This document shows, piece by piece, positions 47,982 through 48,671 of a DNA stretch of 64,000 nt. Position 1 is the stretch's first letter. Each line of letters opens with the position of its first letter. The notes beneath the pieces are model-generated. The model was not told the DNA's origin and did no database searches. It saw only the letters and a program-made list of their open reading frames with translations. The stretch lies in sequence record OR844650. One strand, written 5' to 3'. Made by a program: the position numbers and the translations under genes. This DNA is from Escherichia phage ECO103 4-12-1.

Positions 47982-48184
47982 TCACTTCGTTCTCTCGTAA
48001 CTCAAGAAGTCACTGCGTTTACTTCGTAAACTAGTTCCTTCTGAAAATGATAATGTACTTTAAAAACTTGACGGGATTTGTTGAGGACTATTACATCCCC
48101 CCGCAGGGGAATGAAGGTAATAAAAAAGAGACAATTAAGTCTCTCTTGACGATGATGGCATCGGATATTATCGAATTGCGAATT

Positions 48185-48222
48185 TCTCAAATTTTGGACG
48201 GATCTTTCTTGTACCAAAATTT
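48185..48222. repeat. direct repeat copy 1 (TCTCAAATTTTGGACG..CTTTCTTGTA)
   Basis: Matches copy at 48337-48372; folds as a hairpin. Confidence 0.5.
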
Positions 48223-48336
48223 AGAGAGCGAAAGCGGGTTGCTCGGTTTCTCTCTATCGCAGTCATATGCAACGGTCGCTGGTCTTTTCATCAACAGCAC
48301 TCAGTACTAACTCTATTCGATCAAAGTAGTACTTGT

Positions 48337-48372
48337 TCTCAAATTTTGGACGCAACTTTCTTGTAAAAATTG
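48337..48372. repeat. direct repeat copy 2
   Basis: Matches copy at 48185-48222; the adjacent 8-bp stem GGACGCAA/TTGCGTCC extends to 48377. Confidence 0.5.
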
Positions 48373-48671
48373 CGTCCGCTATCCTTGAACTCCCTTAGCA
48401 AATCTGGTAAGGTGCGAACCTTATACATCTATCTAGGAACTCTCTGTATGCTTATCGGAGTTCTTTATACAGCCGTGTCGCCGTGATTCGTGGTCTTACA
48501 TCGTGTTTGTTTGAATGCCAGTACTCTAACAGGTTTCTTCTGCTGTTCGCTACAACGGTAAAGCTCATCTATCCTTTACATTTTCAAGAGAAGTAGGTTC
48601 TCAGTGTCCATTTTTCAATGTCCGTTGTCATTTTCTATATACATTATATCATTGGAACATATAATGTCCCA

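Follow-up and report, generated by a model that had tools for sequence, protein, structure and literature searches.

A gene-free gap of 690 bp at positions 47982-48671 of a 64,000-nucleotide stretch of Escherichia phage ECO103 4-12-1 (sequence record OR844650; the whole stretch is called the window below) is very probably a real gene for a structured RNA read from the minus strand. The conserved base pairing within the gap is that of a single RNA fold of ~515 nt with about 20 helices, including long-range and four pseudoknot-type helices. On balance, the fuller statement is also favoured, namely that this is an independent minus-strand gene for a non-coding RNA (ncRNA) of ~515 nt which acts in trans and is neither a replication origin nor a leader. 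The initial annotation of the region, made from the sequence, had proposed one or more small RNAs or, alternatively, a replication- or packaging-related cis element. The RNA part of this proposal stands, as a single large minus-strand transcript with its own promoter and terminators and not as several small ones. A replication or packaging cis element has little support, since terminators close the transcript and the element occurs in small bacterial integrative islands.

The window derives from a PBECO4/121Q-type jumbo coliphage (Asteriusvirus, a group with genomes of ~350 kb). Positions 47900-48750 are 99.9-100% identical to Escherichia and Salmonella jumbo phages of the PBECO4/121Q group, the identity to phage PBECO4 is 99.9%, and window coordinates correspond to PBECO4 coordinates plus 10095. 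The gap is bounded by open reading frames (ORFs) ending and starting at 47981 and 48672, and all genes around it are on the minus strand. That it is free of genes was borne out: the ORFs inside 47982-48671 are short (all ≤87 aa, some of 71-87 aa) and unconserved. No ORF is conserved among the homologs in position, frame or length, the longest stop-free stretch being anywhere between 18 and 130 aa long, depending on frame and sequence, and insertions and deletions among the homologs are frequent and have lengths that are not multiples of three; for these two reasons a coding function was rejected. The region has a G+C content of 0.42, compared with ~0.30 in the flanks, and its minimum-free-energy z-scores on the minus and plus strands, -3.3 and -2.9, are so close that a single-sequence fold cannot tell the strands apart. 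The initial annotation had reported no tRNA T-loop in the region, and ARAGORN detects neither a tRNA nor a tmRNA gene in the window.

Comparison with related phages, which had been proposed as a check, gave strong conservation together with compensatory changes. Searches of the whole 348-kb genome of PBECO4 with blastn and nhmmer returned exactly four paralogs in one orientation, at ~37950-38506 (the window copy), ~93.6-94.2 kb, 195.0-195.6 kb and 304.9-305.5 kb, with nhmmer E-values between 1e-130 and 1e-159 and no fifth copy. Each of them sits in a gene-free gap of 600-840 bp, and they are 59-69% identical to one another. Matches were obtained in 59-68 records of cultured phages, all of them Rak2-like jumbo phages, nearly all larger than 320 kb and with 1-5 matching places each; the hosts belong to nine genera (Escherichia, Salmonella, Klebsiella, Erwinia, Yersinia, Pectobacterium, Serratia, Cronobacter and Xanthomonas). 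Across phage genera the nucleotide identity of the region is 65-77%. RaK2 has one diverged copy (nhmmer E = 4.9e-49), which adjoins an RNA-polymerase sigma-factor gene and thereby shares the neighbourhood of PBECO4 copy 4. A further copy, located between baseplate-hub genes gp525/gp526 and endonuclease VII (gp527) and antisense to both neighbours, has kept its position across distant genera, between which the flanking proteins are only 48-80% identical. Three of the four copies in PBECO4, as well as the islands of Citrobacter and E. coli described below, have the RNA running in the same direction as its neighbours, and the genes downstream of it are different and unrelated among the copies. 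Pattern scans of viral, metagenomic and genome collections followed by an nhmmer profile filter yielded ~50 copies, 30 of which are non-redundant; most of the 20 pattern-scan hits in bacterial genomes were chance matches, and only two of these (L033 and L037) passed the filter.

For the analysis of covariation, 29 non-redundant copies were aligned in the RNA sense (alignment A2), and a model of 17 helices and 88 pairs, four of the helices being written as pseudoknots, was evaluated on this alignment. Standard pairs occupied 96.0% of the cells, compared with 79.4 ± 0.5% in 500 shuffles and 33-42% when the partners were slid by 1-3 columns. Likewise, 64 of the 88 pairs changed on both sides (35.8 in shuffles, 19-29 when slid), and the covariation score was 0.463 (0.158 in shuffles, 0.05-0.08 when slid). 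None of the 500 shuffles reached the observed value on any of these measures. An independent run of RNAalifold on A2 recovered the nested helices with 81 pairs, 60 of which show compensatory changes, and such changes are also visible by eye in the alignments. The alignment contains 81 invariant columns, of which 60 are unpaired in the model, a kind of core that functional RNAs typically have.

The elements of the predicted RNA are as follows, from the 5′ end to the 3′ end, with helices numbered P1 to P13 and the two 3′ hairpins named T1 and T2.

48665..48671, minus strand: -35-region box TGGGACA (consensus TGRRAC, often TGAAAC or TGAAACG)
48643..48651, minus strand: extended -10 element TGATATAAT, from the promoter scan
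48121..48636, minus strand: predicted primary transcript of ~515 nt, its ends placed from the promoter and the terminators
48552..48628, minus strand: 5′ domain with P1 (48628-48622/48558-48552), 6 of 7 P1 pairs changing on both sides
Inside P1, minus strand: P1a, a variable 5′ hairpin; RNAalifold recovers P1, P1a and P1b independently
48596-48594/48571-48569 and 48588-48586/48576-48574, minus strand: P1b, inside P1, with the conserved loop GAAAAUGUA
48564-48562/48551-48549, minus strand: P1c, 100% paired, one position having three types of pair
48425..48546, minus strand: middle domain, whose invariant single strands include CACGGC..CGGC, UAUAAAG and GAUAGA
48546-48542/48473-48469, minus strand: P2, 100% paired, recovered by RNAalifold
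48532-48529/48484-48481, minus strand: P2a, 99.1% paired, recovered by RNAalifold, enclosing a variable hairpin with long and short forms
48478-48476/48427-48425, minus strand: P3, 100% paired
48463-48458/48442-48437, minus strand: P4 hairpin, all 6 pairs covarying, recovered by RNAalifold
Within 48335..48421, minus strand: P5 region (UAAGG, CCUUA and invariant CUAAGGGAG), from RNAalifold; weaker, with little variation and possible alternative pairings
48390-48387/48338-48335, minus strand: P6, closing the site of module B, with RNAalifold compensatory changes in columns 345-350/427-432
48336..48377, minus strand: module copy B, comprising the second repeat (48336-48371) and the hairpin GGACGCAA/UUGCGUCC (48377-48349)
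48170..48333, minus strand: conserved pseudoknotted core, P7-P12
48333-48326/48311-48303, minus strand: P7, all 9 pairs covarying
48321-48315/48176-48170, minus strand: P8, its 5′ strand in the P7 loop
48299-48295/48281-48277, minus strand: P9
48273-48269/48242-48238, minus strand: P10, 100% paired
48254-48250/48234-48230, minus strand: P10b
48261-48257/48181-48177, minus strand: P11, contiguous with P8, 4 of 5 pairs covarying
48227-48224/48188-48185, minus strand: P12, all 4 pairs covarying
48184..48223, minus strand: module copy A, with the first repeat (48184-48221) in the P12 loop and the stem AAAUUUUGG/CCAAAAUUU
48148..48162, minus strand: P13 hairpin (GAUG.../...CAUC), overlapping the motif AUCGUCAR; weak, 93.6% paired with no double-sided change
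48121..48144, minus strand: T1, intrinsic terminator with stem AGAGAC/GUCUCU, loop UUAAUU and a U-tract, all 5 stem pairs scored changing on both sides
48093..48114, minus strand: T2, G+C-rich hairpin UCAUUCCCC-UGC-GGGGGGAUGU, 93% paired
48068..48081, minus strand: motif AAAUCYCGUCAR, conserved just past T2, a second copy of CGUCAR

The helices are arranged around an almost invariant core, GACCGUUGC...GAUAGAGAGAAAC.GAGCAACCCGCUUUCG. In P8 the hairpin loop of P7 pairs with a strand ~140 nt downstream; all seven pairs covary and 98% of the cells are paired. P10 (GUUGC/GCAAC), which crosses P11, is Watson-Crick paired in 145 of 145 cells and has three covarying pairs; it makes up an H-type pseudoknot with P10b (GAGAG/CUUUC). 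The latter helix does not vary within A2, and RaK2 has GGACG/CGUUC at this place, a compensatory change from A-U to C-G. In the 5′ part the 3′ strand of P1 is held in the loop of P1c, again an arrangement of the pseudoknot type, and P3 crosses P2. At ~48393-48421, in the P5 region, the RNA-sense sequence AUAAGG-UUCGCA-CCUUACC...GCUAAGGGAG allows CCUUA to pair with either the upstream or the downstream UAAGG; this pair resembles a Shine-Dalgarno/anti-Shine-Dalgarno helix, CUAAGGGAG is invariant, and the segment could act as a switch or imitate an element related to the ribosome.

The hairpins and the repeat that had first drawn attention to the region are all present and find their places in this fold. 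The initial annotation had listed several stable hairpins, which exist as parts of the one ~515-nt structure and not as separate small elements: CCCC-GCA-GGGG, within 48093-48114, is T2; GAGAC-AATTAA-GTCTC at 48128-48143, preceded by A6, is the terminator T1; and GGACGCAA/TTGCGTCC at 48348-48377 is the hairpin of a peripheral module of ~35 nt. The direct repeat was confirmed as 30 nt at 93% identity with a spacing of 152 nt (48184-48213 and 48336-48365), and as 38 nt at 89% (E = 1.7e-7) by blastn within the window. It is explained by the window copy having the module at each of the two alternative sites. In the family as a whole, 12 phage copies have the module in the P12 loop and 10-11 phage copies in the P5-P7 linker closed by P6; most phage copies carry it at only one of the two sites, the window copy and five bacterial copies at both, and PBECO4 copy 2 at neither. 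In large RNAs, peripheral elements typically show such alternative placement of one module. An interpretation of the repeat as part of a type III antitoxin (ToxI-like) or a CRISPR-like array was rejected, there being only two ~38-nt module copies at two sites of one fold, and no toxin or cas gene is present next to the RNA.

Strand and transcript ends were assigned from several kinds of evidence. On the minus strand, a promoter scan matched 10 of 12 positions at 48670-48643, where GGGACA-16-TATAAT has a TG upstream. The extended -10 element TGnTAnAAT stands at the aligned position in 27 of 29 homologs and the TGRRAC box 17 nt upstream of it in 24 of 29, the bacterial copies included. In the phages CBB and GAP32 a 'divergent RpoD-like' class of promoters with TGAAACG and TATA elements has been described, and the promoter in the window matches this class (PMC5259590). 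Weak nhmmer matches (E-values of 0.04-5) covering only the promoter part of the profile were additionally obtained outside the window, upstream of genes for Ssb, the late sigma factor, a protease and a helicase (PBECO4 coordinates 279390-279506, 310136-310173, 333111-333142, 274214-274248 and 257263-257314), which suggests that the RNA genes may share a promoter class with replication and middle genes. Plus-strand promoters built from TTGACG or from the TTGGACG...TGTAAAAAT module were discarded, as the spacing is wrong (12-14 nt) and the -10 element poor or unconserved.

At the 3′ end, a run of at least five U follows the T1 stem in the minus sense in 23 of 29 homologs, and T1 is directional because the plus strand shows its A-run ahead of the hairpin. 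T2 contains a U.G wobble conserved in 22 of 29 homologs, which would be an A.C mismatch on the plus strand; it is the sole 3′ hairpin in PBECO4 copies 3 and 4 and is probably a second terminator or a stabiliser of the 3′ end. Conserved G.U pairs also occur at columns 522/542 (29 of 29 copies), 444/455 (28 of 29) and 469/492 (24 of 29), and at one more place in 27 of 29. Over the final model, G-U combinations in the minus sense outnumber A-C combinations by 139 to 29 (95 to 17 without the terminators), a ratio inflated by a choice of the final helices that partly allowed for minus-strand G-U pairs; a strand-neutral selection of helices gave counts of 57 versus 22 and 31 versus 9. The minus strand was chosen because promoter, 3′ terminator, wobble asymmetry and gene direction agree, and the RNA is predicted from these motifs to run from ~48636 to ~48121 (T1), or to ~48093 (T2) on read-through.

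The motif AUC.CGUCAR occurs twice around the 3′ end, before T1 (48147-48155) and after T2 (48068-48075; YTGACG on the plus strand), and both occurrences are kept across the family. Many homologs (L015, L012, L022, L024, L018) bear a second conserved block downstream of T2, GAAUUGAGU...ACGAAGUGA...AACGAAAAUUCUUUGACAU-CGAAGAAUGGCAAAUC, which the window copy lacks. This block includes a TTGACA box and a small covarying hairpin (CAUUC-GAA-GAAUG, CAUAC-GAA-GUAUG, CAAUC-GUA-GAUUG or CUAAC-GGA-GUUAG), and it may be an early promoter or an element of the 5′ untranslated region (5′-UTR) of the next operon.

Copies in bacteria are rare and were found in Citrobacter amalonaticus, in a metagenome-assembled genome (MAG) of the Enterobacteriaceae and in 2 of 5426 complete E. 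coli genomes; the plasmid database gave no match to the element. They are of full length, keep the helices and are rows of alignment A2. In C. amalonaticus P55 (L037) the element lies by hofB/ppdD, between a large serine recombinase and an ORF of 165 aa, which is followed by genes for a CI-like S24 repressor and a Ner-like helix-turn-helix protein. Two metagenomic islands (L087 and L079) have the same layout. The cargo of L087 includes a type II-A retron (NDT effector plus reverse transcriptase, L087 135-2272), whose reverse transcriptase gene is located ~3 kb from the RNA in opposite orientation and is preceded by a 300-nt gap that could hold the retron msr-msd. A retron msr-msd or other reverse-transcriptase-associated RNA was nevertheless dismissed as the identity of the element itself, as no reverse transcriptase adjoins any phage copy. 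In the Enterobacteriaceae MAG (L033) the element is situated between thiM/thiD and a CI-like repressor gene, on which the RNA converges. In E. coli LR-29-1 it is found in a gap of 1.4 kb without annotation, within an island of ~10 kb near ffs whose further content includes the candidate defence system PDC-M45 (DuOB plus DUF488; L099 7818-8959), a resolvase and a fragment of an integrase. No phage replication genes are visible in the islands. A DUF4326 protein is the sole protein common to the islands and PBECO4, and it is located away from the RNA. In the serine-recombinase islands the 165-aa ORF (L037 4340-4837, L087 4459-4956, L079 1818-2315) invariably comes after the RNA; it has a weak hit to phrog_20181 and no homolog in PBECO4.

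In the favoured reading, the host sigma-70 RNA polymerase would start at the TGRRAC-N17-TGnTATAAT promoter directly after the stop codon of the upstream gene, and transcription would stop at T1, backed by the G+C-rich T2. The RNA would then act in trans via its folded shape, be it that it binds proteins as a scaffold or decoy, assembles with itself or is catalytic, and it would probably be made early to mid infection along with the replication genes. Because early-type promoter logic is combined with an occurrence common to lytic jumbo phages and defence-carrying islands, the sequence context points to a possible role in conflicts between phage and host or among mobile elements. A bolder version, in which the RNA represents a new class of large catalytic or self-assembling RNA that is used early by jumbo phages and has been captured by defence-carrying islands, is regarded as unlikely. 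In this version the island copies, which keep the phage-type promoter box, could hence be switched on, or compete, upon infection by a Rak2-like phage.

Several points weigh against the favoured reading. Besides the inflation of the wobble ratio mentioned above, a first, looser set of RNAalifold helices had no asymmetry at all (29 versus 30), which emerged only once the helices were stricter and the sequences more numerous, and G-U wobble pairs are rare overall. The 5′ end was placed ~7 nt after the -10 element and the 3′ end at the U-tract of T1 with motifs as the sole basis, and conserved sequence runs on past T1 and T2, which makes the true 3′ end and any extra functions uncertain. No RNA-seq study of an Asteriusvirus was found in the literature. 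The class of the '-35' box precedes replication genes in related phages and fits a T4-like origin as well. Furthermore, no protein partner co-occurring with the RNA in both phages and islands was found, and the analyses do not discriminate between scaffold, decoy, cage and ribozyme.

The foremost alternative, although quite unlikely in our assessment, is a replication-origin element. The promoter would make a structured primer RNA that primes leading-strand synthesis at four origins, and the island copies would be hijacked origins that let an infecting jumbo phage replicate the island. Origins of phage T4 consist of a middle promoter and a downstream element, and ColE1 RNA II is a structure-dependent transcript of ~550 nt. 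The present element resembles these systems in being a promoter-driven RNA of ~0.5 kb whose folding matters and, like T4 oriF and oriG with their several origins on middle-class promoters, in having four dispersed copies that share a box with replication genes. The copies lie at 38, 94, 195 and 305 kb in one orientation; the TGAAACG-class box is used by CBB and GAP32 upstream of DNA-synthesis genes, the promoter-only matches upstream of the ssb and late-sigma genes fit in with this, and according to its annotations the phage has a T4-type replisome. However, a primer transcript should persist as an R-loop at an unwinding element and should not be terminated before it, whereas the conserved and covarying T1 hairpin with its U-tract, followed by T2, would release the RNA at its 3′ end and not leave it as a hybrid. 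Cumulative GC skew, another check suggested at the outset, has no inflection at any of the four PBECO4 copies, which is a weak test for T4-like phages; the skew in this genome follows the gene strand. The pseudoknotted fold of ~20 helices is far more elaborate than in ColE1 RNA II or the T4 origins and exceeds the needs of any known primer RNA, no homology to either system was found, and the islands carry the RNA without visible phage replication genes. A packaging site, the other cis function that had been considered, is hard to square with four dispersed copies.

Less probable still is a large ribozyme, in which the pseudoknotted core would catalyse self-processing, ligation or some other reaction, with the variable modules as peripheral stabilisers, as are known from group I introns and RNase P. 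The nearly invariant, mostly unpaired core ringed by covarying helices and pseudoknots agrees with this possibility, as does the presence of the module at either of two sites, comparable to the natural permutations of ncRNAs outlined in PMC10085705. On the other hand, there is no match to any ribozyme model of Rfam 15, with a promoter and terminators of its own the RNA would not obviously need to process itself, and the context suggests no substrate or reaction. A hammerhead ribozyme in particular, for which plus-strand CUGACGA...CGAAA was considered, was ruled out, as C3 is T in the PBECO4 copies (TTGACG), the strand is wrong and no Rfam hammerhead model matches.

A cis-acting leader or attenuator is improbable. 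The RNA would be a long 5′-UTR, and T1 and T2 would conditionally control read-through into the downstream genes, which could be reconciled with three observations: the RNA shares its direction with the next gene at three of the four PBECO4 loci and in the islands of Citrobacter and E. coli, conserved sequence extends beyond T2, and CCUUA has two possible UAAGG partners, a potential switch. What speaks against it is that the downstream genes differ among the copies, while a riboswitch would be expected to precede the same target gene, and that the endonuclease VII copy is antisense to both neighbours. This syntenic copy faces the 3′ end of a convergent gene, and the RNA of the Enterobacteriaceae MAG converges on a repressor gene.

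A repeat acting at the DNA level without any RNA role, such as a recombination hot spot, a protein-binding array or a miniature mobile element, is highly improbable. The element is multicopy, dispersed and also present in bacterial islands, and hence has moved horizontally, and G-U pairs are scarce overall; but compensated long-range and pseudoknot pairs, a strand-asymmetric wobble and a promoter-terminator unit are unexpected for a double-stranded DNA site, terminal inverted repeats and target duplications were not seen, and copies stand at syntenic positions across genera. Scarcely credible, finally, are unannotated small protein genes in the gap, for although the window contains ORFs of 71-87 aa, which are annotated by some depositors, they are conserved in neither position, frame nor length, the frequent insertions and deletions are not in threes, and conservation tracks base pairing and not codons.

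The covariance-model search against RNA families, likewise proposed in the initial annotation, identified no known family. With Rfam 15, whose families include GOLLD, ROOL, OLE, raiA, HEARO, group I and II introns, RNase P, 6S RNA, tmRNA and the small ribozymes, no match at gathering score was obtained across the 64-kb window. At E ≤ 10 only unrelated sub-threshold matches were obtained in 47800-48800, and six other homolog loci gave no consistent match. No description of the RNA was found in the literature on Rak2-like phages, jumbo-phage ncRNAs, ornate RNAs and catalogues of structured phage RNAs. The RNA is longer than 400 nt, has many covarying helices with pseudoknots and is encoded by a free-standing gene in phages and islands, as is characteristic of large ornate phage RNAs. 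It is therefore filed as a new family of large ornate phage-borne ncRNAs and, because the Rfam models failed to match, not as a member of GOLLD or ROOL.

Cryo-electron microscopy has shown that GOLLD and ROOL form homo-oligomeric cages (PMC12286853). The present RNA shares with them a length of ~0.5 kb or more, many covarying pseudoknotted helices and free-standing genes in phages or prophage-like elements. In contrast to these RNAs, which often adjoin tRNA genes, none of the PBECO4 copies does so, the present RNA is multicopy with 3-5 diverged paralogs per genome, and it occurs in jumbo phages of Enterobacteria and Xanthomonas. PBECO4 has six tRNA genes (Thr, Asn, Met, two Ser and Gly), the only ones of the phage, at 207.8-212.1 kb (L006 7837-12112), ~12 kb or more from any copy of the RNA, the nearest being copy 4. 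OLE, raiA and HEARO are likewise long, conserved, structured RNAs with invariant unpaired cores found by comparative genomics, and no homology to them was found. OLE, which works together with membrane proteins, and HEARO, which serves IscB as guide RNA, each have a fixed partner gene nearby, whereas the present RNA has no accompanying partner gene.

In phage PA5oct, which belongs to the same wider group, RNA-seq defined four ORF-less transcripts of 236-619 nt, ncRNA001-004, two of which are very abundant with 2-5% of the phage reads (PMC7318152). They were rejected as homologs, because nhmmer found only a terminator-like hairpin and the invariant motifs are absent, and they are considered analogues only. 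A catalogue of viral structured-RNA candidates from IMG/VR (PMC10690425) shares its source data with the present analysis and likewise relies on covariation within intergenic regions of viruses. Its candidates measure 29-151 nt and, in the part of this source that was available, no multicopy jumbo-phage RNA of ~500 nt is described; fragments of the present RNA may be among the candidates.

The genes on both sides of the gap matched only PHROG families of unknown function:

47553-47981, minus strand: ORF of 142 aa, PHROG family of unknown function
48672-49070, minus strand: ORF of 132 aa, PHROG family of unknown function

Two genes upstream of the RNA a gene for an HNH endonuclease is located (218 aa; PBECO4 gp059; 49481-50137, minus strand). 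PBECO4 copy 4 is also near an HNH gene (gp353) and copy 2 adjoins endonuclease VII, which may be coincidence. The minus-strand gene at 47080-47520, two genes downstream of the RNA, encodes a Dps-like 'starvation-inducible transcriptional regulator' (phrog_858). Several GenBank records annotate 2-6 'hypothetical proteins' over the RNA gene, for example ORFs 48047-48310 (plus strand) and 48002-48217 (minus strand), and ORF245 of RaK2 (L101 1359-1565) is annotated over the RaK2 homolog; as these ORFs are unconserved, they are probably spurious calls.

To our knowledge, very few large and intricate RNAs of bacteria and phages have been described, namely OLE, GOLLD, ROOL, raiA and HEARO. RNAs of this kind have opened up new biology, including guide RNAs, RNA cages and membrane ribonucleoproteins. 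The RNA described here occurs in culturable jumbo phages of E. coli (among them PBECO4, 121Q and phAPEC6) and is hence experimentally accessible, and natural paralogs, permutations of the module and rare bacterial copies are available for comparison. At the level of annotation, the finding corrects the many GenBank records in which 2-6 'hypothetical proteins' are placed on the RNA gene. If the bolder version described above holds true, the island copies would represent an RNA-level mimic in the conflict between phages and islands, either by interference or by satellite-like hijacking of a phage RNA function. If the RNA should prove to be the primer of an origin or a decoy against defence systems, this would account for a non-coding feature conserved throughout a group of phages that are candidates for therapy.

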